A stretch of 64,000 nucleotides of DNA from a virus. Lineage: Duplodnaviria; Caudoviricetes. Every line of letters begins with the position of its first letter. Position 1 is the stretch's first letter. The position numbers and the translations under genes are program-made. Shown one piece after another: positions 31,568 to 43,671 of this stretch. The notes beneath the pieces were generated by a model that worked only from the letters and a program-made list of their open reading frames with translations, had not been told where the DNA came from and ran no database searches. Location of the stretch: the IMG/VR virus record IMGVR_UViG_3300008954_000001; one strand, 5' to 3'.

Positions 31568-32884
31568 ATGAGTATTATCAACCAAGCATGGAACCATTTT
31601 GACAGGGTTCGCCAATTGTCGAGATGTGCTCCTTCAAGGATCAAGCAACTCGAAGCCCGACAATGGATGACCATTATTGAAACCCTAACTTCGGCGGGTC
31701 AAACGGCTGACAGCGGTTTCGATGAGGGCCTTCAACCGAATCATGGTGCCATGATGCGGGATGATAATGGACAGGATTACAGCATCCCTTCCATGAATGT
31801 TCAGTTGTGTACCATGATCGACTACCTCCATTGGGGTTCGCAAACCGTTGTGGTTGGGCCAAACATGCAAGAAGCCTTTGCGGATACGGAACTTGGGAAA
31901 GTCCCCGTCAGCCATCTGAAGTTCCCCTTCCCTTGCTACTGGCTTGCCCTCCCCGACAATGAGGACATCCGTATCTATGGTGGCGATCCCGAAGCGGTAG
32001 TTGCCAACTATGAACTCAATGGGGAAGTGCTCAACACTTACGGCACGGGCTGGCACAAGGTAAAGGGAGCCTATATCGTCAACCGCAAAGAGGGCATACT
32101 GGTTCATATGTGGGCACCGGAACCAGAAGACCCTGAGATTCGTAAACGCCTCAACGAGATTGAAAACGGTCCTGCCAAATTGGGTCTAACTGGCAACACT
32201 GGATTGGATTGGGCGCACCAATGGTTCACGATGAGGTTTCTTCCAGATCAAGATTTGGAAGAAACGATCCGAGAGGTTTACACCGATATTGACCGAGAGG
32301 TTTTCGACCCCCACCCCAACGACCCGACTCGCACCTATTGGCAAGAAGCCTGTATGGGTATCCAACATGAAGGGGAAGGCCGAGACATTATGGTTAGTTC
32401 GGCTTGTCGGGTGCTTCGGATCATCATCAATTCTGCCCTATACATGACTTCCCCCAAAGCAGACATTGCTCACATTCGGAGTGTGAAGCGGGACAGACTA
32501 CTCCAACAGGCCCAAGACCTTACGGAGATCGCCGCACGAAACGGGAATCGGAAAGGCCAGCGCAAGCTACGGAGAGAAGCCAAAAGAAAGGCCCAAAAAG
32601 CTGAACGCTACAAATCCCCTGTCGTTTGGATTGGCCCAAAAGTCGAAGAAAAGATGCGTTCTCGAAATGCCACTTCTGACAAGAAAAGGGAACACACCGC
32701 TCGTAAGGGGCATGTCCGAAAAGGTCATTGGCACAAGTTTCTAACGGGCCGCAAACTGGACGATCATGGGAACCCCATCCCTTCAGAGGCCCGTGGCTTT
32801 ATCTTCCATTGGATTCCGCCCCTGTGGTGCGGGGATCTGAACGATAAGAAGGAAGCCCAAACCTACGCCTTCCGAGAAGTTTAG
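31568..32884 (+). CDS. Hypothetical protein (438 aa) with a C-terminal basic GHVRKGHW...WIPP motif
   Basis: RBS AGGAGG, 11 bp after the helicase stop; followed by a terminator. Confidence 0.75.
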   Translation: MSIINQAWNHFDRVRQLSRCAPSRIKQLEARQWMTIIETLTSAGQTADSGFDEGLQPNHGAMMRDDNGQDYSIPSMNVQLCTMIDYLHWGSQTVVVGPNMQEAFADTELGKVPVSHLKFPFPCYWLALPDNEDIRIYGGDPEAVVANYELNGEVLNTYGTGWHKVKGAYIVNRKEGILVHMWAPEPEDPEIRKRLNEIENGPAKLGLTGNTGLDWAHQWFTMRFLPDQDLEETIREVYTDIDREVFDPHPNDPTRTYWQEACMGIQHEGEGRDIMVSSACRVLRIIINSALYMTSPKADIAHIRSVKRDRLLQQAQDLTEIAARNGNRKGQRKLRREAKRKAQKAERYKSPVVWIGPKVEEKMRSRNATSDKKREHTARKGHVRKGHWHKFLTGRKLDDHGNPIPSEARGFIFHWIPPLWCGDLNDKKEAQTYAFREV

Positions 32885-32962: not shown

Positions 32963-35900
32963 TTAGAGAGAGCTACGAATGTTGAACTTCAGGATAATGT
33001 AAAGCAACGGGAAGATCGGCTGATAGAAAGATTCAACCTCACACGCCGTTGGATCGTTGGGGCTAATGTTCGCCTTGATCCCGGTGTACGCTGAAACAAT
33101 CTGTGCGCTTACCATCTGCTTGTACATCTCGGCCAACCGTCCCTCAACCTGTGAGATAATCTGAGGTAGAAACTTCACGCCAATGAAGCCTTCCAGAGTG
33201 TCACGGGTTTGCTGCTGAACTTCGTCGGCAATCTGAACAACGGAAGGAGTCTTGGTCATAACATTCCCCATGTCCGTAGTGAGGCCCTGCCGCACACGAA
33301 TAAAGGGAGGCTTGTTTTCACAAACCGTAACACCAGCCGAAGCAACCTGATTCATGGTCACGGTATCCAAGTTCCGAGCCACCCCATTCGTACCCACAAA
33401 GGACGTTCCCGTCCATGGAGTAGCGGGGTCACGGTTCGGGCTAACTTGCCGTGCCGCCATCATAGCCGCCAGATACCGACCATCAACCAACTCTTCCTTC
33501 TCGTTTCCGAGTGCGTCAGTAGTCGTGACCGTCAACATATCGGGATACAGACAACGGATTCGAGGGTTACCCGAAACCTTCATGCCGTTTTCATCCTCGC
33601 CCATATCAAGCTGTGCGACCAAATCCGCCGCCTCGGAAGGCTGCGTTCCAGCACTAAAGCCGAGAATACAGGTACGCTCCGCTTGATTACGGATATTGGA
33701 CTGCTCATCCACATGGAGAGAAAGGAAAGTTCCCAACTCGTGTGAATACTCAAGCAAAGGCACGAGGACCGATGGCCGAATACGACCGGGCAACAGACCT
33801 TCAAGTTCCGTGACCGCATCCAAATAGGATGCGATAGAACCGTTTACCTTGCCCTCTTCACGCCGTACCTGCTTCACGCCAACAACGGTAGCACCGTTCA
33901 TAAACATGAGGTAGGAAGCCAGACTGCTCTGATTGGTAGCCCCCACTGATCCGAATGCAGCCTCAATCGAAGCAACCTTCGTAAACAGACGGGGTGAGTA
34001 GTTACGCTTCTCGTACTCATACGAGGCGTAATAGCTCTGTCCAATCGCAGGCTCGTTGCCACCCTTATGGTGAGTCGTGATCGTTGCCGTATCACCTTCT
34101 CCAACGGAACTGGTGTTTGCAACGAACAACTGAACGCCAGGAATCGAGTCAATCGGCACATTGGCATCACAGGTAATCTCATCTGCACAGGTCAACTCAA
34201 AGGTTGAGGTTGCGTTAGATGAGTAGTTACCACCACCAAGCGGAGCCAAAAGCGTGAAGGTAAGACCCGTGACTTCATCACGATAAGTCTGACCAACAAC
34301 ACCATCTTGACCAGTACCGTCGTTGAGGACAGAAGATCCCGAAGAACCTGACCCAACAGGGTTATCAGAAGTGACATGGAAGCCAGTGCGACCCGACTCA
34401 CCATTATCCTGATCCCCATTCGTACCGAGCAAGCCCGTTCCCGAACGGAAAGCGGTGCAATCGCCCACGGCAACACTTGAAGCAAGACCCAAGGTGGGGC
34501 TTTGAATCTGAACATAATCGTCGCCAGAAGCGTCCGTTACGATCATCACCATCGCACCATCTTGATCCAAACCATCGCCAGCCACATCAGCAAACAACGC
34601 CTTCCACGAAGCCGTTGATTCCGTCATCATCGAAGCCGCCAACGCTGCCGCCGAGACTCCTTCACGAACTGAAGACTCATTGTCGGTAAGACGAATCGTG
34701 TTGTTTGCGCTTCCTTCACCGATAGCAACCCGTGAACTCGCACCCTGCGTGGCACTTTCAATCCAGAAAGCTGCGCCTTCTTGGGTCAAAGCACCTACAC
34801 CAGCGGCGACAAGGGCTGCACTAATCTGACCCAAAACCGAAGCGGGTTCGCCAACAGGTCCAAGAGGAGTCGCCGTACCTACATCAGAAGATGTGAACGC
34901 AACCGTTACGGAGGTTCCGTCGATGGTCAAATCAAGCGTGTCGTTTGCGGGGTTAGCCGCCACACCACCATCGAAGAAAGTGAGTTCTGCCTGACCGTCT
35001 GTATCTACACCGCCACCGACAGCCGTTTGGCCTGTACCAAACCCAACATCAGCCTTAACCGCTGCGGGGAGAACAGTAGCCGAGCTTCGAGGCTCTGCAC
35101 TTTCGCCACCTTCCCAACCGAACAGGCTCATTGCGGTTCCCGAAAGAACCTCAAGACCTAAACCAGTGTGTCCACGAGGGTTCACCGAACCAGCGTTTCC
35201 AGGGATAATGCGGTTGCGGAGAATCAAGCGATCATGGGAATCCGCACCAGAGTCGCCGTTTCCACCGTCACCCAACTTCGCAATCGGGCCATGAAGGATT
35301 TGGGTCTGATCCGTATCCGCAAGAGCGGCGGTATCAATACCTGCGACATTTGCAGCGAAATCCGCCTTAGCCGCTACGGAACTCAAGAAGGAGAATCGCC
35401 CGTGCGTGGCATTTACCGCCCTTGCACAAGTGAATACCAACTGACTACTGACATTCGCAGCAACAGTTACCGTTGGATAATCGTCAACATCCGTTGTTCC
35501 AGCCAATACAACGGTAGTAATCCCGCCTTCGATGGCCGCCTGAACAGCCGCCGCCAAGTCACCAACATTCGTGTAAACGCCAGCGGCGATATCAACACTG
35601 ATGGTTTCGGCACCTTCCGCATCGTCATTCCAATGAAGTCGAATGTTGTCAAAAACGCCAGCGGCGATCTCGACTCGATTCCGAACCATAGTTGAAGCGG
35701 TGTACTGAGGAGGAACAGCGTCCGCAGCGGCGTTAAGGGCCGTTACGAAATCTGCGATGCCAGCGTTCGCCGCACCTACCGTGGCCGAAATCGTCTGACC
35801 ATCAACACTCAAAGAAAGAGTGTCATTTGATCCCGCATCAATCGTCCAAGAGGTGTTGTTATCGGGGGCGGCCTCATCATACTGAGCCTTCGCTGATACG

Positions 35901-37882
35901 AGCATCGCAGCAGCGGGGCGGCTTGCGCCGAGCATCGTTCGAGTAGCACCACCATCAACGGTGATAATCATACTGTCCGAGGAACCGTCCACAAAGAAGT
36001 ATGGGCCAGGGTTGCCAAAAGACATCATGGCGGGGGTTTCATCCTTATCCACCAAAGTAACCGTGACAATTTCGCCCACTGGACCCGTAAACAGGTCGGA
36101 ATCGACCGCCTCAAAACGAGCTTGTGGAAGATTGGAGTTTCCAGACTCAAACTGGAGAACCTCAACCAAACCATCGCCCTTATCCGTCAAAGGAGCAGCA
36201 AAAACGGAGTCTCCACCACTATCTGTAATAGAGTAGGTGCCTACTGAAGAAGCCCCTGCCGAAACACAGGTGAGGGTAAAGGTCTCGTCATCAACGCCGT
36301 TGTACCAATGGGTAGCGAACAAGGACATACCTGGCTCAATGGCTTCCGCCAAAGTAACCGTCTTTGTATTAGCATCCACACTGGCAACCGTGACAGCACC
36401 ACGATCCAAGGCATCCTGAACATCATATCCAGCGAAAGCCGTGACCAGTTCGGGGCGGTTTGACCACACATCCCGACGATCATTCGTCATGGCCTTAAAG
36501 GTTGCGGGAGTTAGAGGAAACTCATTCCCCGGTGATCCCACACCATTACCAGAAGTTGGAATACGGCTAAGAGTGAACGCCGTTCGACTCGTCGCCCCAC
36601 CATCCGTAACAGGCTCGCAAAGCTCCATGTGAGTGCGGCAATCCGCCAACTGTGCCGTGATTTGAGTGTCATCAAAAGGCGTGGCGAGTTCCGAAGAGGA
36701 ATCCGCAGCGATAATAGCCGCCGTTCCCCAATGGAGTTTGTCGTCCTGAAGGATGAAGTCACTGCCTGCGAGGTAGTCCATACGACTCGGCTCAAGACCA
36801 CACCGCAACATTCGAGTTACGCCAATGTCGAAAACATAGTCGAAAGTGTCCTGCCAAGAGTTCCAGAAGTAGGTCACCTCTAAAGTTGATCCCGCTGCGG
36901 GAGCAACCGCCAAAGTGATACCACCGTTCTTTCCGTCTACTTCGGAAACCTCAACTTCTGCCCCGTCTACCGTCACTACAACGCCTGTGGTGCTTCCCGT
37001 ATCAAGGGTGCGACCAGCGTTGGTGCCGTCCACAATCGGACGCTGATGGGTAAAGAAGCGGGCATTTCGAGAAGTCTCGTCACCATTGACGATGCCAAGA
37101 GTGTCGTTTGCGAGGCCAGCACCAATCGCAATGCCTTGTTCCGCAGACAAGAGGATAACAGTATCCCCTTCGTTGTTTGTAATGGTGGAAGCCTCCAAGG
37201 AGCCGATTTCTTCAGCATTGATGAAACCGATTACCTGAACGGCTGTCCAAGTACCTTCAGGAAGCTCGAAAGAAGCACTTTCGCCGTCTACCGTCAGTTC
37301 AAGGGTGTCGTTTGTACCTGCTTCAATCTCAAAACCAGCACCTTCGGCACCCGTTCCAGTGATTTCAGCACCGTCACCCGAAACTTGTGCTGACAAGTCA
37401 TCGGTCTGTTGGGTGTCTGTGCGATTGAAGAAGTAGGTGACCATCACCTCATCCTCAAGGGTCGCAGCCACGGCAAGCTCAATAGTGCCGTTGGCACCGT
37501 TGACAGCCAGTACAACGGAAGGTTCTCCATTGATAAACGCTGTCACATCGGCAGGATCGTTAGTGGTTCGGCCATTCCCCTGACCGTCAACAATGGGGAA
37601 ATTACGGACCATAACAACGGTAGCTTCACCGTTGAAATCTCCGAGATTGCCGTCATCGTCAATCACCGCACGGCCAGCCATGTCATCCAAGGGGATGCGC
37701 TGGTCTACGGATTGGGAAGACCCCCGAACAACCTCAAGGCCGTTTCGGGTCAAAATTTCATTTCCAGGACCAATCAACATAGGAATGTTTGTTGATCCCA
37801 AGACTCCTCCAAGGGCGGATTCGTACTCGGTTTCCGTGTACACGCCGGGAGGGGCATAGGGGTTCTTAAAGTCAAAAGCCAT
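32963..37882 (-). CDS. Contractile tail sheath protein, unusually large (1639 aa)
   Basis: N-terminal PYAPPGVYTETE and C-terminal sheath core (FIRVRQGLTT...SVVQIADEVQQQTRDTLEGFIGVKF...CEVESFYQPIFPLLYIILKF). Confidence 0.9.
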   Translation of the reverse strand: MAFDFKNPYAPPGVYTETEYESALGGVLGSTNIPMLIGPGNEILTRNGLEVVRGSSQSVDQRIPLDDMAGRAVIDDDGNLGDFNGEATVVMVRNFPIVDGQGNGRTTNDPADVTAFINGEPSVVLAVNGANGTIELAVAATLEDEVMVTYFFNRTDTQQTDDLSAQVSGDGAEITGTGAEGAGFEIEAGTNDTLELTVDGESASFELPEGTWTAVQVIGFINAEEIGSLEASTITNNEGDTVILLSAEQGIAIGAGLANDTLGIVNGDETSRNARFFTHQRPIVDGTNAGRTLDTGSTTGVVVTVDGAEVEVSEVDGKNGGITLAVAPAAGSTLEVTYFWNSWQDTFDYVFDIGVTRMLRCGLEPSRMDYLAGSDFILQDDKLHWGTAAIIAADSSSELATPFDDTQITAQLADCRTHMELCEPVTDGGATSRTAFTLSRIPTSGNGVGSPGNEFPLTPATFKAMTNDRRDVWSNRPELVTAFAGYDVQDALDRGAVTVASVDANTKTVTLAEAIEPGMSLFATHWYNGVDDETFTLTCVSAGASSVGTYSITDSGGDSVFAAPLTDKGDGLVEVLQFESGNSNLPQARFEAVDSDLFTGPVGEIVTVTLVDKDETPAMMSFGNPGPYFFVDGSSDSMIITVDGGATRTMLGASRPAAAMLVSAKAQYDEAAPDNNTSWTIDAGSNDTLSLSVDGQTISATVGAANAGIADFVTALNAAADAVPPQYTASTMVRNRVEIAAGVFDNIRLHWNDDAEGAETISVDIAAGVYTNVGDLAAAVQAAIEGGITTVVLAGTTDVDDYPTVTVAANVSSQLVFTCARAVNATHGRFSFLSSVAAKADFAANVAGIDTAALADTDQTQILHGPIAKLGDGGNGDSGADSHDRLILRNRIIPGNAGSVNPRGHTGLGLEVLSGTAMSLFGWEGGESAEPRSSATVLPAAVKADVGFGTGQTAVGGGVDTDGQAELTFFDGGVAANPANDTLDLTIDGTSVTVAFTSSDVGTATPLGPVGEPASVLGQISAALVAAGVGALTQEGAAFWIESATQGASSRVAIGEGSANNTIRLTDNESSVREGVSAAALAASMMTESTASWKALFADVAGDGLDQDGAMVMIVTDASGDDYVQIQSPTLGLASSVAVGDCTAFRSGTGLLGTNGDQDNGESGRTGFHVTSDNPVGSGSSGSSVLNDGTGQDGVVGQTYRDEVTGLTFTLLAPLGGGNYSSNATSTFELTCADEITCDANVPIDSIPGVQLFVANTSSVGEGDTATITTHHKGGNEPAIGQSYYASYEYEKRNYSPRLFTKVASIEAAFGSVGATNQSSLASYLMFMNGATVVGVKQVRREEGKVNGSIASYLDAVTELEGLLPGRIRPSVLVPLLEYSHELGTFLSLHVDEQSNIRNQAERTCILGFSAGTQPSEAADLVAQLDMGEDENGMKVSGNPRIRCLYPDMLTVTTTDALGNEKEELVDGRYLAAMMAARQVSPNRDPATPWTGTSFVGTNGVARNLDTVTMNQVASAGVTVCENKPPFIRVRQGLTTDMGNVMTKTPSVVQIADEVQQQTRDTLEGFIGVKFLPQIISQVEGRLAEMYKQMVSAQIVSAYTGIKANISPNDPTACEVESFYQPIFPLLYIILKFNIRSSL

Positions 37883-38041
37883 GATGGGTTCTCCTTCTCA
37901 GTTAGTGGCTGTTACAAAACAGTGTTTCTTTCAAATCCACGCCAGTATTGACGGGGTTTTAAGCTCGGTTGATGCACATGCTTCCATACTTGTTTTCTAA
38001 CCAGACCATCACGGTCGGAGAGGGAACCCACCCTCATGCGT

Positions 38042-38500
38042 CTATTGACGCTCTTTAGCTTTCAGCTTCTTCTTGTGTCTATCAATCATTCCCATAGCCT
38101 CGGCATTGAGATTTCGGGCGGTTTCTGCGGCCAACCGTTCGTCTTTATTCAGAATTCGGTAATCGCCAGTGTCCGTCCTACTAAGATCGTGTCCAGAAGT
38201 GCCTGGATTGTCTCGAATGACCTCACGCTTTCGCTCATGTCGTTTTGAAATTTGTTCGTAGCTGCCCTTGGCATGGTCGCCAATGACTCGATCTACATTT
38301 GCGTCATAGGAAGATACGCCCGTGTTCTGTGGGCGGATCGTGCCATCCCCATTCGGAATGTAGGTGGAGGTCATCGTTTCAGGGGGGAGCCTAAGAGCTT
38401 CGGCATCGCAACCCAGACAGGGGTAGGGGTCGGTCCCCATAGCCGCTGTACGGTGAGCATCGAAGCGAAGGCCACAAGCCTGACACTGATAATTATACAA
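38042..38500 (-). CDS. FmdB-family zinc-ribbon protein (152 aa)
   Basis: YNYQCQAC-G-x-F...CLGC pattern. Confidence 0.7.
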   Translation of the reverse strand: MYNYQCQACGLRFDAHRTAAMGTDPYPCLGCDAEALRLPPETMTSTYIPNGDGTIRPQNTGVSSYDANVDRVIGDHAKGSYEQISKRHERKREVIRDNPGTSGHDLSRTDTGDYRILNKDERLAAETARNLNAEAMGMIDRHKKKLKAKERQ

Positions 38501-38556: not shown

Positions 38557-39741
38557 CTATTTGATAAGTTCGTAAGTCCCGCTCCGACCGGAAAAGAAGG
38601 GATCAAGACTCCGCTCGATCCCCAAACTTCGGTTGGCGAGGCTCTCTTCAGTTGCATTAGCGGGGTCTGCCTCCGCCGCTTTCATATCTTCACTGCTGAT
38701 CGCTGAAACAGACCTCATCCACGGCCCCAAAGGAACATGAATAGACCACTCGGTTTCCAAGGAAATGTTGAAGTTCCCGTTGAAGAAGTAGTCGTCGCCC
38801 GTTTCGTCGTAGATTTCTTCCACCTCTCCACCGAGACTCATATCCATGATCTCAATGCCTTCTGTGGAAAGTCGTGGGCGAAGCACACCAAAAATGAATG
38901 TGCAGGTACGATCAATAATCTCTCTCTGAGCGTGAACATCTCTGGAAATCACATCGAATTCCATATTCAGCGTCCAACGACCGCCGTACTCTTGGTATGC
39001 AGGCTCACGCCGATTCGACACAACAACCGCTGCTCGATCCCCCGCCTCCACCTCACGCCCAAACGCCAAGACCACACCAGGAATCGCCGTATTGTCTGCC
39101 CGCATACTCCTAAAAGGAATCGGGCCAAGGCTTGGTACGGCATATCGGTAATCCGCTGAAAGGCTCATCCCTGCTTTCAAGGGCTGAACTAAAGTAATGC
39201 CAGCGGTTTCGGGGTCATAAGTGAAGTTACGCAGCCGAATCCCGCTCGGAACCTCATATAAAGATAAGGTTCCATCCAAGGGCTTCCGCTGAAGAGTCGC
39301 TTCACTGGGACTCACCATAGTTACGGCTTCATTCCGAACCTCTAAAAGACGATCTACATAGAATTCGCCCTCACTGGTGTTCTGATTGTATGCCGTAATC
39401 TCAATGTAATAGACCCCTGCGGGGGAGGGGAAAGAACCTCCGTTGGATTGGATGGCCAGCCCATCCTCCCGAATCCACTCAAGAAAGGTGCCTTGATAAC
39501 TATCTACTTTCGTCAGATAGCAATAACTGTGAACAGTTCCCATGTAGTTATCAGCGGCCATCTTGACGATAGAGCCACCCGACGACTTTACAATGATCCC
39601 ATGTTGAGGGCGTTCGGCAAACGAATACTTACCTTGGATATTATCAACAAGGTCGTCCCTGTACCTCGGATGATAAGACCAGAAGCGACGAAGTTCCTGA
39701 ATGAATCTTCGAGTTAAAGCATGAGTGAGAACGTAGTACAC
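38557..39741 (-). CDS. Tail terminator / tail completion-like protein (394 aa) with an inserted beta-sandwich domain
   Basis: Position upstream of the sheath; terminator-like C-terminus (MEFDVISRDVHAQREIIDR...FFNGNFNISLETEW). Confidence 0.45.
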   Translation of the reverse strand: MYYVLTHALTRRFIQELRRFWSYHPRYRDDLVDNIQGKYSFAERPQHGIIVKSSGGSIVKMAADNYMGTVHSYCYLTKVDSYQGTFLEWIREDGLAIQSNGGSFPSPAGVYYIEITAYNQNTSEGEFYVDRLLEVRNEAVTMVSPSEATLQRKPLDGTLSLYEVPSGIRLRNFTYDPETAGITLVQPLKAGMSLSADYRYAVPSLGPIPFRSMRADNTAIPGVVLAFGREVEAGDRAAVVVSNRREPAYQEYGGRWTLNMEFDVISRDVHAQREIIDRTCTFIFGVLRPRLSTEGIEIMDMSLGGEVEEIYDETGDDYFFNGNFNISLETEWSIHVPLGPWMRSVSAISSEDMKAAEADPANATEESLANRSLGIERSLDPFFSGRSGTYELIK

Positions 39742-39754
39742 GACAACTCCAAGG

Positions 39755-40060
39755 TTACTCCTCTTTCAGAGTACCCGTCAGAGTGATTGTACTGCCCTCT
39801 TTGGTCAGAGAAATCGTCGAGTAGTAGCCGAAAAACTTGCGACCCCCTTGGCCGTAATAAACGAGCTTTCCTCGCCCGTGCTCAACGGTTTCCCCATCCT
39901 CTTCTGGGATCGTAACTTGAATCAAAGGCGGCCCCATCGCTGGAATACCTGCCTTTGAGTCATTGAAAGCGTCCCCACTTCCAATTGTCGGGGCATCGGG
40001 ATCTGGTGGGATGATGCCATCCAAGACATCCAGAAAATCTTTACTACTACTCATCATCAT
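39755..40060 (-). CDS. Hypothetical protein (~100 aa) coupled to the actin-like gene
   Basis: Overlaps the actin-like stop by 14 bp and fills the gap to the next gene. Confidence 0.6.
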   Translation of the reverse strand: MMMSSSKDFLDVLDGIIPPDPDAPTIGSGDAFNDSKAGIPAMGPPLIQVTIPEEDGETVEHGRGKLVYYGQGGRKFFGYYSTISLTKEGSTITLTGTLKEE

Positions 40061-41129
40061 ACTCCTGCATGGCCTGAACCAACATTCCGTAAGCCACAGC
40101 GTTTAGCGGTTCGTTTGCGTGTCGAATTTCCGATACTTCAATGGGGAACTTTCGACGCTTCTTGTTAAAAACAGCCTGAAAGAACTCCATGAAGCCCCCT
40201 GCTAAAGAGGTGCCTCCTGAAACCACAATCGGAATCGGACGGGGCAAAGAAAACTGCCCCTCAATCTGCTTAAAGCGGAGGGCGATTTGATCTAAAGCAT
40301 ATTCAATCAAGTTGCGGTAATAGAAAACAATCGCCTCTTGATCTCGCCCCTCAGGACTGTTCAAATCGATCCCCTGCTCCTTAATCGAGCAGATACGGGC
40401 TTGTGTGGACCCAATGCTTCGAGCGGCCCCACCATCAATCCAATCCCCCCCACGGGCGACCGAAAAGCTCAAACCTTCAATAGTGTTCACAGCCAAGGCA
40501 ATATTGGTCATTCCTGAACCGAAACTGATTCCGATCCCCGAAAAACCTTCCTTAGCAGTCTCGGCATAGATAATAGCCATCGCTTCATTCGAGGCATAAG
40601 GCTCATAGCCACATTCCGTCACAATGCGCTCAAAAACCCCTCGGTGATAAATGATGTCTTTATCTGGCTGATCGATGGGGGCGGCGGGAACCGAAAAGTA
40701 ACAGGCTTCATTTTCTACCCGTGGCTCGCCCAAAACATTCTTTACGAGCAACCCCAAAACATCGAGAGCGTCCGTCTCACCCGAAGAAATCAGGCCCGCT
40801 TGTAGTGGTCGCCGTGCTTCTCGGCCAAAGATATTGGCAGTTTCCAATGCGGGATCACCGATAATGATCAATTCGTCAGGTCGCTCAACGTAGCTCACAC
40901 CCGACAATTTCAACATTTTCTTGGAGTCTGGCGGAAGGTCGAGGAAAGCATCTCGAACTCGACGGGACTCAATCTCACCCGACCCGCTTCTACGGGCCGA
41001 AACGATATTCATTGTCCCGATGTCCAACCCTACGCCCTTAGGGAGCACCTTGGCGGGCTTCTTCGAGGCCGCCTTAGGCTTTGCTTGAGGCTTTTCTTGG
41101 GGCGTTTCTGGGGTTTCTGCGTCAGACAT
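40047..41129 (-). CDS. Actin-fold ATPase (MreB/MamK/ParM superfamily; Mad28-like signature)
   Basis: Phosphate-1 GLDIGTMNI, connect-1 NEAMAIIY, phosphate-2 GISFGSGMT, adenosine IVVSGGTS, connect-2 PLNAVAYG; RBS AGGAG. Confidence 0.85.
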   Translation of the reverse strand: MSDAETPETPQEKPQAKPKAASKKPAKVLPKGVGLDIGTMNIVSARRSGSGEIESRRVRDAFLDLPPDSKKMLKLSGVSYVERPDELIIIGDPALETANIFGREARRPLQAGLISSGETDALDVLGLLVKNVLGEPRVENEACYFSVPAAPIDQPDKDIIYHRGVFERIVTECGYEPYASNEAMAIIYAETAKEGFSGIGISFGSGMTNIALAVNTIEGLSFSVARGGDWIDGGAARSIGSTQARICSIKEQGIDLNSPEGRDQEAIVFYYRNLIEYALDQIALRFKQIEGQFSLPRPIPIVVSGGTSLAGGFMEFFQAVFNKKRRKFPIEVSEIRHANEPLNAVAYGMLVQAMQEYDDE

Positions 41130-41140
41130 TTTAGGACTCC

Positions 41141-41776
41141 TTATTTTTTCTTCTTAGCTTTCCTGAGTTGCCTTAATGCCTCAGTAGCCGCATCCACAGA
41201 GGAACCCTTTGAAGATGTGCTGGAGGTATCGATATCAGCCTTCAACTCACCTGACACGATACCCTCAGGAATAAACATAGGCGTATCATCGACTAAAGCC
41301 GATGGGTGCTGCCCACCTTGGACGGCACCAGCGTTTTGAACAATGGGTAAATTACCCAACATTTCTTTCAACATGGATGCAAGAACCTCCGTATCGACTT
41401 GGGCCGCTGGAGGAGCGGGGGCGGGAGCGACTACGGGCGCTGGAGCTTTTTGGTTTTCAAGGGTGCTCGAAATCTGAACAAGATGATCCCGGAGAGCACC
41501 AGAAATCATCTCTTTCATACGATCTTCAAAATTTGGTGTCGGAATCTTGTTCTTCGGCTTGCGTTTCTTCGGGGCGTTTCTTCGAGAAGTGTCTCGGATT
41601 CGAGGAGCTTGCTTCGTCTTAAAGGATAAACCTCCGAGCCGAATAGCCCGCTGAACCTCAACTGAGCGCATAGCGTCCTGTTCGGGGATCTCCAACCGCT
41701 CTCCTCTCGTTAGCACAACCCCAAATTCAGGCAGGGAAATCCTGTCCATGCGACACGTTAAAATCACGGTTTTCAT
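41141..41776 (-). CDS. Hypothetical protein (211 aa): basic patch, Pro/Ala linker, basic amphipathic C-terminus
   Basis: 4-bp overlap with the upstream gene; 11 bp upstream of the actin-like gene. Confidence 0.7.
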   Translation of the reverse strand: MKTVILTCRMDRISLPEFGVVLTRGERLEIPEQDAMRSVEVQRAIRLGGLSFKTKQAPRIRDTSRRNAPKKRKPKNKIPTPNFEDRMKEMISGALRDHLVQISSTLENQKAPAPVVAPAPAPPAAQVDTEVLASMLKEMLGNLPIVQNAGAVQGGQHPSALVDDTPMFIPEGIVSGELKADIDTSSTSSKGSSVDAATEALRQLRKAKKKK

Positions 41777-42297
41777 TGCTTCTTCCCTAAGGCATGGCCG
41801 ACCATTGTGGTCCCGTATTCGTCCAAGATGGCTTTCTTAGCCCTCTGGATAGCCCTCTGGATGAAGGTGTGTTTAGCGATCCCTGGATGACACCAGATAT
41901 TGTCTGAACAAGGCCCCTTCTTTAGTTTGGCGGGCATGGTTCGGAAGATTAACTCTCCCGATTTCTTATCGATGAGCGGAATAACCTTCCCCGGCGCACC
42001 TACTCGCCAGCCTTTCTTTCCCTCCATGTATGCTTCAGGCTTCATATGAGGCCAAGACGATTGAATCTCAATCGTACTTTTACCTCTCAAAGACCACGAA
42101 AAAGAGTTGAAGAACTTTTCAGAGCGGGGGATCGACTTGGAGCGACCGGCTACCTTCATAGCTTCTTGCTTGATGAACTCGATGCACTTATCCCCCAACT
42201 TCGCCAAAATTGTATTGGAGGGGCTGGTTCGGAACCCACCCTTCTTAGCTAAAGGGCCGCCGTAAATACCTTTGACTCGAAACGGTTGCTCTGCCAC
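41773..42297 (-). CDS. Neck / tail-completion-like basic protein (174 aa)
   Basis: Synteny after the head-closure gene; C-terminal WCHPGIAKHTFIQRAI resembles HK97 gp10-type proteins. Confidence 0.4.
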   Translation of the reverse strand: MAEQPFRVKGIYGGPLAKKGGFRTSPSNTILAKLGDKCIEFIKQEAMKVAGRSKSIPRSEKFFNSFSWSLRGKSTIEIQSSWPHMKPEAYMEGKKGWRVGAPGKVIPLIDKKSGELIFRTMPAKLKKGPCSDNIWCHPGIAKHTFIQRAIQRAKKAILDEYGTTMVGHALGKKQ

Positions 42298-42306
42298 TTA
42301 TCCCCC

Positions 42307-43671
42307 CTACTTCTCAATGTTATCCCACACAGGGGTACGGCCTCGTTTCTCCGTCTCATCGGGGAAATTGCTCTTTTCAGTTTGCATGGGGGTCGTACTA
42401 TCAGTGCCGATAGGAAAGGGGGGAGAATGGTCATGCTGTCCCGCAGCGGGAGCCACAGCACTGTGGCTGTATCGAGTTTCAGGGAAGACCATGGAATCAG
42501 TTCCATCGATGGGAACCTCAAAACGAATGTCCTGTTGGTCAATGATCCCAATCGTAAAGTGCTGCTGTAAAACATTCCCTCGATTAGTGGGGCGACGAAC
42601 GGCCCCTACGCTGTATCTCTCATTTGTTTGCTTAACGATAAAGTCTCGCATCGTAAGCATGGGGCTTGGCCCCATGAAAACCTCGTACTGCATCTCCACT
42701 CGTCGGCCCATCGGGGTTTGGGACACACGACGATCCCCATCTTCGGGGGCGATAATAATGTCGTAAGGGCCTTCGTAGCCCCCGATATAGCCCGTGCCAA
42801 AACACAAACGGCATCGTTGGGAGGCTTGCTTGTTGTATTCAAGATCCTGCTCGTCCATCCCACAAGAACAATGCGTTCCCGTAGTCTTTCGGACAAAAGC
42901 CTTTACTCGCTCGCCACCTTGCTGAAGAATCCACTGATTGCGGCGAACAGCCTCTTTCCAAATGTAATCCAACTCCTCGATGGCCGTTGGCGTAACAGGA
43001 TGGCAGTTCTCTAAAGCCGTCTCAACCAACCCATTTTCGGTGACGGCAACGGTGGTTAGACGGTAAAAAACCTTACGGTCAAGGGCGACCCCTGGCGTAA
43101 GGTTCTTGTTTCGGTAGTACGAAACCGTGACCGATGTGTTTTCGTCTATGGTGGTTGGGTCTGCGTACTTCTCTCGTCCAACATCATAAGTCGCATGGTT
43201 GGTCAGGATTACCTCACCCGTGCGACCAAACACTTGCTGAACCTCAACAGGCTCGCCAGCAATCTCAACAACAAGATCCGAGGGCGAATTCGCAAATACC
43301 CCACGGCCATCTTTTTTGACCATAGGGTGCTTACTGCGAAAGGACCACCTACGACTGTTCGAGGCATCGCCCTTATTGACCCAAGAATTGTCGAAATCGA
43401 CAACCTCTTGCCGCACCAAAACATTAACTGTTCTGTCCCGATAGAAAGCCCCTCCAACGGGGACTTCGTTGACCCGACGATAGGGGCCACGGTCTGATGC
43501 GTCAGACCGATACACATTTACCCCAAGGATAGTCCAAGGAGTATTAGCTGACAGTAGGGCGGGGTTGTCCCATCGAAGATCATAAACCCCTACTTTATAG
43601 GGGCTAAAAGCCATCCCGTTTTGAGGCGGAGAAGGCTTATCTCCCGTCGATGTCTCCCAGCCAGCAGTCAA
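42307..43671 (-). CDS. Head closure / neck protein (454 aa) with a Zn-finger insert
   Basis: GGERVKAFVRK...CSC...CRLCFGTGYIGGY...LTMRDFIV...RYSV...RGNVLQQHF; position between adaptor and tail genes. Confidence 0.55.
   Translation of the reverse strand: MTAGWETSTGDKPSPPQNGMAFSPYKVGVYDLRWDNPALLSANTPWTILGVNVYRSDASDRGPYRRVNEVPVGGAFYRDRTVNVLVRQEVVDFDNSWVNKGDASNSRRWSFRSKHPMVKKDGRGVFANSPSDLVVEIAGEPVEVQQVFGRTGEVILTNHATYDVGREKYADPTTIDENTSVTVSYYRNKNLTPGVALDRKVFYRLTTVAVTENGLVETALENCHPVTPTAIEELDYIWKEAVRRNQWILQQGGERVKAFVRKTTGTHCSCGMDEQDLEYNKQASQRCRLCFGTGYIGGYEGPYDIIIAPEDGDRRVSQTPMGRRVEMQYEVFMGPSPMLTMRDFIVKQTNERYSVGAVRRPTNRGNVLQQHFTIGIIDQQDIRFEVPIDGTDSMVFPETRYSHSAVAPAAGQHDHSPPFPIGTDSTTPMQTEKSNFPDETEKRGRTPVWDNIEK

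Follow-up and report, generated by a model that had tools for sequence, protein, structure and literature searches.

A very large uncultured marine phage encodes, between its neck and tail genes, a highly conserved actin-like protein of the volactin/Mad28 type together with a partner protein encoded upstream, a pairing also found in Planctomycetota bacteria, which suggests that these phages build their own actin filaments late in infection. The analysed window is the whole 64,000-nucleotide stretch of record IMGVR_UViG_3300008954_000001, and the genes considered here, all on the minus strand, are named by their length in amino acids (g211 for the 211-aa protein, and so forth). No paper describing this system was found. 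The features are as follows.

42307..43671 (-), g454, a conserved virion structural protein of 454 aa with a CxC...CxxC cysteine cluster
41773..42297 (-), g174, an HK97-gp10-like neck or tail-completion protein of 174 aa
41141..41776 (-), g211, the 211-aa partner, with an N-terminal beta-rich domain, helices, a Pro/Ala linker, an FIPxGIV motif and a C-terminal basic helix
41609..41776 (-), N-terminal domain of the partner (residues 1-56)
41144..41200 (-), C-terminal helix and basic tail of the partner (residues 193-211; family consensus LDxAxxALRAxRKxKK)
40047..41129 (-), volactin/Mad28-type actin-like ATPase of 360 aa, with a Lys/Pro-rich N-terminal tail of about 30 aa that is not conserved
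41013..41030 (-), phosphate-1 motif GLDIGT (residues 34-39)
40584..40586 (-), Glu182 in connect-1 (NEAMA, residues 181-185), by alignment the counterpart of the Glu in the MamK/MreB EP motif
40506..40532 (-), phosphate-2 motif GISFGSGMT (residues 200-208), with Ser202 in place of the usual Asp
40206..40223 (-), adenosine motif VSGGTS (residues 303-308)
39755..40060 (-), g101, a lineage-specific 101-aa ORF in a variable slot between the actin and the terminator-like gene
38557..39741 (-), g394, a tail-terminator-like or tube-like neck protein of 394 aa
38042..38500 (-), a zinc-ribbon protein of 152 aa
32963..37882 (-), g1639, a giant conserved protein of 1639 aa, called sheath-like only by inference from its position and its N-terminal PPGVY motif

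The observation made in the sequence-only reading, namely an actin-fold protein with a substituted phosphate-2 Asp lying in tight linkage with two small ORFs, is confirmed. The 360-aa protein matches the Pfam Volactin model (PF25216) end to end (E 1.6e-72; 245.2 bits against a cut-off of 35; model positions 3-321 of 321), and a family profile searched against solved structures finds MamK (E 6e-13) as the best relative, followed by MreB and FtsA, whereas a single-sequence search of the same kind gave only spurious ALIX hits. The Atlas structure model (pTM 0.84) has a volactin cluster as its nearest neighbour (TM 0.90), then salactin, MamK and MreB. All five actin-fold motifs are present and conserved across 82 family representatives: Asp36, Gly38 and Thr39 of phosphate-1 are nearly invariant, as is Glu182, which aligns to the MamK sEpf segment; Gly305 of the adenosine motif is invariant and Gly306 nearly so; and connect-2 contributes Gly348. 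Ser202 aligns with the Asp of MamK and is a family-wide hallmark, found in 80 of 82 representatives, 86 of 87 phage copies and 74 of 74 Planctomycetota copies. The phosphate-2 loop is also the intein insertion hotspot in relatives, with inteins at several sites in or beside it (four sites read from the junction sequences) in at least 17 of 150 representatives. The long N-terminal extensions of some family members carry no Pfam domain, except for tandem volactins and one Wzz/tyrosine-kinase fusion.

The genes are tightly packed: g174 and g211 overlap by 4 nt, an 11-nt gap with an AAGGAG Shine-Dalgarno site precedes the actin, the actin and g101 overlap by 14 nt, and a 13-nt gap precedes g394. 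Whether the actin keeps its place beside neck genes in relatives had been set out in advance as a condition on which the proposal could fail, and the synteny holds. The actin is a core gene of a large uncultured huge-phage clade sampled from marine, freshwater and groundwater environments, with 2234 homologue clusters at 90% identity and 1100 representatives at 50%, and in 82 loci, down to 52% identity, it sits in the same block, in the order g454, g174, g211, actin, g394, zinc ribbon, g1639. Median identity is 58% for the actin against 39-44% for its structural neighbours, and it was the most conserved gene in all 56 loci that could be compared. Gene position in huge phages is nevertheless a weak guide to function, as a distant huge-phage volactin (LR756511, 32% identity) lies outside any structural block.

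The neck and tail-completion character of this block rests on several of its members. The g454 family matches phrog_1004 (virion structural protein) in 9 of 22 members and phrog_2806 in 16 of 22, has four invariant Cys and is present in 65 of 82 loci. The g174 family gives a PF04883 hit in 2 of 27 members (best E 3.6e-4) and is syntenic in 38 loci by tblastn. The g394 model (pLDDT 81) matches, at Foldseek probability 1.0, phage 812 neck chains, the E217 and Pa193 neck (collar/gateway) entries and the A-1(L) gp7 terminator entry, in addition to tail tube proteins, and the gene is present in 73 of 82 loci. The zinc-ribbon protein has only a below-cut-off match to PF09723 (E 1e-4) and is syntenic in 45 loci, while g1639 is syntenic in 73 of 82 loci and has no Pfam hit.

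Conservation of the three-gene unit in related phages had likewise been named beforehand as a check, and it holds for two of the three genes. The g211 family lies upstream of the actin in 79 of 88 phage loci, and in at least seven of the other nine the upstream flank is cut off. In contrast, g101 is conserved only in the closest relatives, at 63% in one locus (L088) and weakly, at about 22%, in another (L008); it is absent from LR745208 and from most loci, which carry unrelated ORFs or none, the terminator-like gene then starting directly after the actin, such that g101 is not part of the conserved system. In one large subclade, at 52-58% identity, the gene immediately upstream of the actin was initially taken for a second adaptor type, but it is a Dps/ferritin-like insert and the true g211 homologue lies further upstream. 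The partner is as syntenic as every other gene of the block, so linkage alone does not single it out; whether g211 homologues occur in phages that lack the actin was not examined, and a word-indexed protein search with the g211 family alignment found only 26 proteins, nearly all close relatives. No fusion of the partner to the actin was found among 150 representatives, and Pfam and PHROGs gave nothing for g211 or g101.

Evidence for the pairing also comes from the closest cellular relatives, chromosomal Planctomycetota volactins (42-49% identity), which have their own conserved same-strand upstream partner in 66 loci. The C-terminal half of the g211 family is homologous to this partner (hhalign Prob 88, E 3e-6 over 107 columns), whereas the reversed template gives E 0.005 and 20 column shuffles give E of 0.49 or more. 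In the C-terminal helix of g211, modelled at pLDDT 72-86, Ala197, Ala200 and Leu201 are nearly invariant or invariant, and the helix aligns with the GGIAANLARLKKLKGG tail of the Planctomycetota partner. The N-terminal domain is modelled at pLDDT 95-98 but has only weak fold matches (small phage proteins, DUF7210, YqbF and FluMu_N), and thus its target is unknown. Complex prediction, another of the checks proposed at the outset, gave weak support for binding of the actin to g211 and leaves the matter undecided: the score was 0.53 against a best control of 0.09, where the mark was reached by 58 of 80 solved complexes and 2 of 110 mismatched pairs, but at 0.60 or under by only 7 of those 80 and by both mismatches that passed; the runs agree in at least 54% of contacts, and the partner's pLDDT is at least 52.

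Recent capture of a host mreB or ftsA had also been named as grounds for rejection, and the actin is not a recent host capture. Phage copies lie outside the Planctomycetota clade, which has 98-99 support, although monophyly of the phage copies themselves is well supported in FastTree (98) but not in a quick IQ-TREE run (15) once unlabelled representatives are included. Host prediction was not attempted, and the MAG labels of phage contigs are mutually inconsistent.

Altogether, the interpretation offered in the sequence-only reading is partly supported. An actin-fold ATPase with the Ser-for-Asp signature published for Mad28 (PMC10653835), placement inside a neck and tail-completion block, and a conserved, co-inherited 211-aa partner are all upheld; the ~100-aa ORF as a conserved partner is not, the family can be named as Volactin and is not an unassigned actin, and the suggested transport of heads and tails, or a chaperone role, rests only on gene position. 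In the explanation favoured here, the actin is a vertically inherited core gene travelling with a cognate partner, and the two genes would be transcribed late with the neck and tail-completion genes, as inferred from tight packing and the lack of intergenic space, expression and its timing not having been examined. The actin would bind ATP through its intact phosphate-1, phosphate-2 and adenosine motifs and Glu182 and, by family membership, polymerise into filaments; the partner would dock on it through its conserved C-terminal helix, as inferred from homology to the cellular volactin partner and the weakly supported complex prediction, and its phage-specific N-terminal domain would tie the filament to a phage target. 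The most likely role is the spatial organisation of late events, such as positioning or moving heads, tails or packaged DNA in large host cells. What the analysis demonstrates is the identity, conservation and pairing of the genes, while filament formation, binding to the partner and the role in the cell are inferred, neither polymerisation nor ATPase activity having been assayed and there being no experimental or transcript evidence for this phage; this reading is considered only somewhat more likely than not. A more far-reaching version, which remains doubtful, is that a whole clade of huge phages tethers late-expressed actin filaments through the partner's N-terminal domain to virion parts or packaged genomes, as an actin-based assembly or egress track inherited as a two-gene cassette sharing ancestry with a so far unstudied Planctomycetota actin and adaptor system.

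Several alternatives were weighed against this view. A non-polymerising, Hsp70-like assembly ATPase that chaperones or loads neck and tail parts, for example the giant 1639-aa protein, with g211 as its co-factor, would accord with the position between tail-completion and terminator-like genes in 82 loci, with the unusually large neighbouring proteins and with a Ser substitution that could change hydrolysis; however, there is no HSP70 hit and no substrate-binding domain, the close families (volactin, Mad28, MamK, salactin and MreB) are all filament formers, and Planctomycetota relatives have the same partner module without any phage genes nearby. A ParMRC- or AlpAC-like system, in which the partner binds phage DNA and filaments move or anchor replicating or packaged genomes, is suggested by the two-gene layout of an actin plus an adaptor with a C-terminal helix and a basic patch or tail, by the fusion of some volactins to an HU-like DNA-binding domain (an Atlas cluster), and by HeH-motif ORFs or a Dps-like gene next to the actin in other loci. 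Against it stand the absence of a ParM/StbA Pfam hit, of centromere-like iterated repeats and of intergenic space near the cassette, the lack of any match of the partner's N-terminal domain to ribbon-helix-helix or other DNA-binding folds, and the embedding in a structural operon. Both alternatives are considered unlikely.

Somewhat less likely still is a host-cytoskeleton mimic, in which the phage actin and its partner would co-assemble with, cap or hijack the host's own volactin filaments rather than build a separate phage skeleton; the Planctomycetota relatives and their shared C-terminal module favour it, but the host is unknown, phage copies do not nest inside the Planctomycetota clade, the clade occurs in varied waters, and a late structural context fits poorly with host take-over. 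A recently captured host mreB, ftsA or volactin gene with no fixed role is very improbable and already contradicted by the data: cellular homologues exist, but the fixed position, the conservation of the actin above the rest of its block, its placement outside the Planctomycetota clade and a best cellular identity of only 42-49% all oppose it.

The phage cytoskeletons studied so far are PhuZ tubulin and a few actin-like proteins of temperate elements. Here, an actin is better conserved than the structural genes around it across thousands of huge-phage sequences and carries inteins in its nucleotide loop, which argues that the phage needs it. If it forms filaments, it would be a second, independent and widespread solution to organising infection in large cells, and would also give a handle on the unstudied volactin and partner module of Planctomycetota. 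The two genes are small and can be expressed without a cultured host, so the central claims are open to direct testing.

Among known systems, volactin of Haloferax volcanii (VolA, HVO_2015) belongs to the same Pfam family over the full length, has the actin fold and forms dynamic filaments in vivo (PMC10869688), a property known within the family for this protein only and not assayed here for the phage protein; it is, however, an archaeal cell-shape protein, and identity to the archaeal members is only about 31-35%, whereas the present gene lies in a phage neck and tail block with a phage-specific partner. Mad28, the magnetosome-associated actin-like protein of deep-branching magnetotactic bacteria, has the same two motif variants, phosphate-2 S-x-G-x-G instead of D-x-G-x-G and connect-1 xExx instead of xEPx, and polymerises in vitro and forms filaments in E. 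coli (PMC10653835), such that the Ser does not prevent polymerisation. The relationship rests on these motifs, no Mad28 reference sequence having been aligned; Mad28 works with MamK on magnetosome chains, while the neighbours here are phage neck and tail genes and not a magnetosome cluster beside mamK. An Omnitrophota MAG (an assembled environmental genome) carries tandem PF25216 genes, but its upstream ORF has a C-terminal helix without a clear motif match and is not used as evidence.

The chromosomal volactins of Planctomycetota share the upstream partner ending in a conserved basic helix, but that partner has a coiled-coil N-terminus where the phage partner has a small beta-rich domain, the cellular genes have no phage neighbours, and the genomes also carry a true MreB. 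MamK (PDB 5jyg, 5ljv) is a filament that works through adaptors, but it has the canonical phosphate-2 Asp, and the phage protein gave no hit to the MreB_Mbl model (PF06723) at E up to 0.01. AlpC/AlpA of corynephage CGP3 and ParMRC likewise combine an actin-like ATPase with a small adaptor encoded beside it in a mobile element (PMC4446434), although those adaptors bind DNA sites and serve replication or segregation, whereas here neither iterated repeats nor a ribbon-helix-helix or other DNA-binding fold was found and the context is structural. Finally, no tubulin (PF00091) was found in five related phage genomes, one of them a complete 447-kb genome; the PhuZ tubulin of nucleus-forming jumbo phages is also a phage-encoded cytoskeletal filament in very large phages, but it has a tubulin fold and is unrelated to the actin-fold protein described here.

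The minus strand between window positions 38000 and 44200 carries a tight run of genes, in which the junctions are overlaps or gaps of 4-14 nt, an AAGGAG site precedes the 360-aa gene, and consensus scans found no convincing promoter or terminator inside the run. The genes of the run and its continuation are as follows:

42307-43671 (-), g454
41773-42297 (-), g174
41141-41776 (-), g211, encoding the 211-aa protein
40047-41129 (-), the 360-aa gene, encoding the actin-like protein
39755-40060 (-), g101, the 101-aa ORF
38557-39741 (-), g394
38042-38500 (-), a zinc-ribbon gene
32963-37882 (-), the 1639-aa gene, g1639

The window is part of an uncultured marine huge phage. The identical 360-aa protein occurs on contigs of 244-323 kb, and its nearest GenBank relative is a 485-kb uncultured phage, LR745208. 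Outside this run, a precomputed annotation lists a Pfam AcrVA2-like (PF26125) hit for the 438-aa gene at 31568-32884 (+), next to the SNF2 helicase, although a separate Pfam scan at E up to 0.01 did not return it.

On the level of protein identity, the 360-aa product matches Pfam Volactin (PF25216) end to end at E 1.6e-72, and no other family. A single-sequence search of solved structures found nothing real, whereas a profile of 59 family members found MamK (E 6e-13), followed by MreB, FtsA and EutJ. The ESM Atlas holds a confident model of this exact sequence (pTM 0.84), the nearest neighbours of which are volactin clusters (TM 0.90), then salactin, MamK and MreB. All five actin-fold motifs are conserved in 82 representatives, and the observation of a Ser at the phosphate-2 position holds: Ser202 aligns with the Asp of MamK, and Ser is found in 80 of 82 representatives, 86 of 87 phage copies and 74 of 74 Planctomycetota copies.

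The gene is widely distributed. A word-indexed search found 2234 clusters, the best 120 of them at 69-100% identity, while an exhaustive search found 1100 representatives at 50% identity. Eighty IMG/VR loci, on contigs up to 447 kb, carry it, and a complete 447-kb genome with terminal repeats has one copy. Synteny with the neck genes in relatives, a condition on which the sequence-only reading had staked its proposal, was borne out, as the order g454, g174, g211, actin, g394, Zn ribbon, g1639 is kept in these loci. Median identity to the window is 58% for the actin, against 44%, 41% and 39% for g454, g394 and g1639, respectively, and the actin was the most conserved of the four in 56 of 56 loci. 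One 297-kb IMG/VR contig (loci L019 and L033) carries two copies of the g454-g174-g211-actin part of the module on opposite strands, at 70% and 65% actin identity to the window, which may reflect a chimeric assembly of two related phages. Additionally, a second, AT-rich huge phage (LR756511, 7998-9017) has a distant volactin (32% identity) outside any structural block, preceded by a 76-aa ORF.

At least 17 of 150 representatives carry inteins, with HNH or LAGLIDADG endonucleases, that interrupt the actin gene at several sites in or beside the phosphate-2 loop. In these relatives (P0121-P0267), four such sites can be read from the junction sequences (after Ser202, Gly204, Met207 and Asn209), with insertion points that map to window 40500-40530, and one further site lies near Arg226. 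That pattern is typical of indispensable nucleotide-binding sites.

The neck and tail-completion setting is supported by the neighbouring genes, though each single assignment is modest. The g394 model (pLDDT 81) matches neck chains of phage 812, the E217 and Pa193 neck (collar/gateway) entries, the A-1(L) gp7 terminator entry and tail tube proteins, at Foldseek probability up to 1.0 but with low global TM scores, and is read here as a terminator-like or tube-like protein. Members of the g174 family hit HK97-gp10_like in 2 of 27 cases. Members of the g454 family hit virion structural PHROGs, and g454 and its relatives keep four invariant cysteines (CxC...CxxC), which suggests a zinc site in a virion structural protein.

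Conservation of the three-gene block, likewise named in advance as a check on the proposal of two coupled small partners, gave a divided result. The 101-aa ORF is not conserved: it has a 63% homologue only in the closest relative (locus L088) and a weak one in locus L008, and is absent from LR745208. In most loci g394 follows the actin directly, or unrelated ORFs and homing endonucleases fill the slot, which is variable and holds lineage-specific small ORFs, a GIY-YIG homing endonuclease (locus L003) and small ORFs with a HeH/SAP-like motif (loci L023 and L028). By contrast, the 211-aa protein is conserved, and a family HMM finds it upstream of the actin in 79 of 88 phage loci; in at least seven of the other nine the actin lies near a contig end, so that the upstream flank is missing. 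In the subclade with 52-58% actin identity (loci L043-L087), a Dps/ferritin-like gene (PF00210 in 19 of 19 members; DUF5856), with a conserved N-terminal W-x-D-P...GPPYLP motif and located about 700-1600 nt upstream of the actin, is inserted between the g211 homologue and the actin; it is an insert and not a second adaptor.

The g211 model comprises a very confident N-terminal beta-rich domain (residues 1-56), two helices, a disordered Pro/Ala and Ser-rich stretch, and a C-terminal helix followed by a basic tail. The N-terminal domain has only weak fold matches, namely to small phage proteins, DUF7210, YqbF and FluMu_N. Complex prediction, which had also been proposed as a check, returned weak support for actin with g211, with a score of 0.53 against a best control of 0.09. 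The mark was reached by 58 of 80 solved complexes and 2 of 110 mismatched pairs, but at 0.60 or under by only 7 of those 80 and by both mismatches that passed. Whether the two proteins bind is left undecided by this score, and no interface was reported. The runs agree in at least 54% of contacts, and the partner's pLDDT is at least 52.

Cellular relatives were sought in a genome scan, which found 74 Planctomycetota loci at 42-49% identity, some on contigs up to a complete 7.2-Mb chromosome and none with phage neighbours. The hits at 47-87% identity are phage contigs binned into unrelated metagenome-assembled genomes (MAGs); contigs carrying this module (loci L088-L093) are deposited inside MAGs labelled Legionellales, Thermoplasmata, Actinomycetota, Methylobacter and Altiarchaeales, which are binning errors rather than clues to the host. 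An Omnitrophota MAG (L174:4001-6251) carries two tandem PF25216 genes preceded by a 96-aa ORF that overlaps the first one. The Planctomycetota genomes also have a true MreB, and in trees rooted on that MreB the Planctomycetota copies form a clade with 98-99 support, whereas the phage copies fall in its sister group and do not nest inside it. The joint node has support of 71 (FastTree) and 80 (IQ-TREE), and phage monophyly is strong only in FastTree. In 31 of the Planctomycetota loci (L149:8600-11647 and 30 others), a convergent 1015-aa protein with Amidase_3, Golvesin_C, Germane and fn3 domains lies downstream of the volactin.

The Planctomycetota genes have their own conserved upstream partner in 66 loci, a coiled-coil protein ending in a conserved ESN..GGIAANLARLKKLKGG tail. 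Profile comparison of the phage g211 family with this partner gives Prob 88 and E 3e-6 over 107 columns of the C-terminal half, whereas the reversed template gives E 0.005 and 20 column shuffles give E of 0.49 or more. Actin and partner therefore look like an old two-gene cassette, in which the phage version swapped the N-terminal part.

Altogether, family membership, the motif pattern, core-gene status with fixed synteny in a neck and tail block, co-inheritance with the partner, and kinship of the pair with a Planctomycetota cassette are demonstrated by the analysis, while late co-transcription, filament formation, docking of the partner's C-terminal helix on the actin and a role in organising late events are inferences drawn from it. 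The interpretation offered by the sequence-only reading is supported in part. Alternative explanations include a non-polymerising assembly ATPase, a ParMRC-like DNA system and a host-cytoskeleton mimic, whereas a recent passenger gene, corresponding to the host capture that had been named beforehand as grounds for rejection, is contradicted by the data.

Papers mentioning volactin, judged from titles and abstracts, and literature searches for phage actins turned up no description of this system. What is new here for this window is the quantified synteny and conservation ranking, the recognition of the Dps-like gene as an insert, the pattern of intein sites, the controlled profile test of partner homology, and the exclusion of the 101-aa ORF from the system.

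In relation to known cytoskeletal systems, no tubulin was found in five related phage genomes. The link drawn by the sequence-only reading between the phosphate-2 Ser and Mad28 is correct, as Awal et al. report S-x-G-x-G and xExx as the Mad28 variants of the MamK motifs, and also show that Mad28 polymerises in vitro and forms filaments in E. coli (PMC10653835). Volactin, in turn, forms dynamic filaments in Haloferax (PMC10869688), a property not assayed here for the phage protein. The Ser is therefore compatible with polymerisation.
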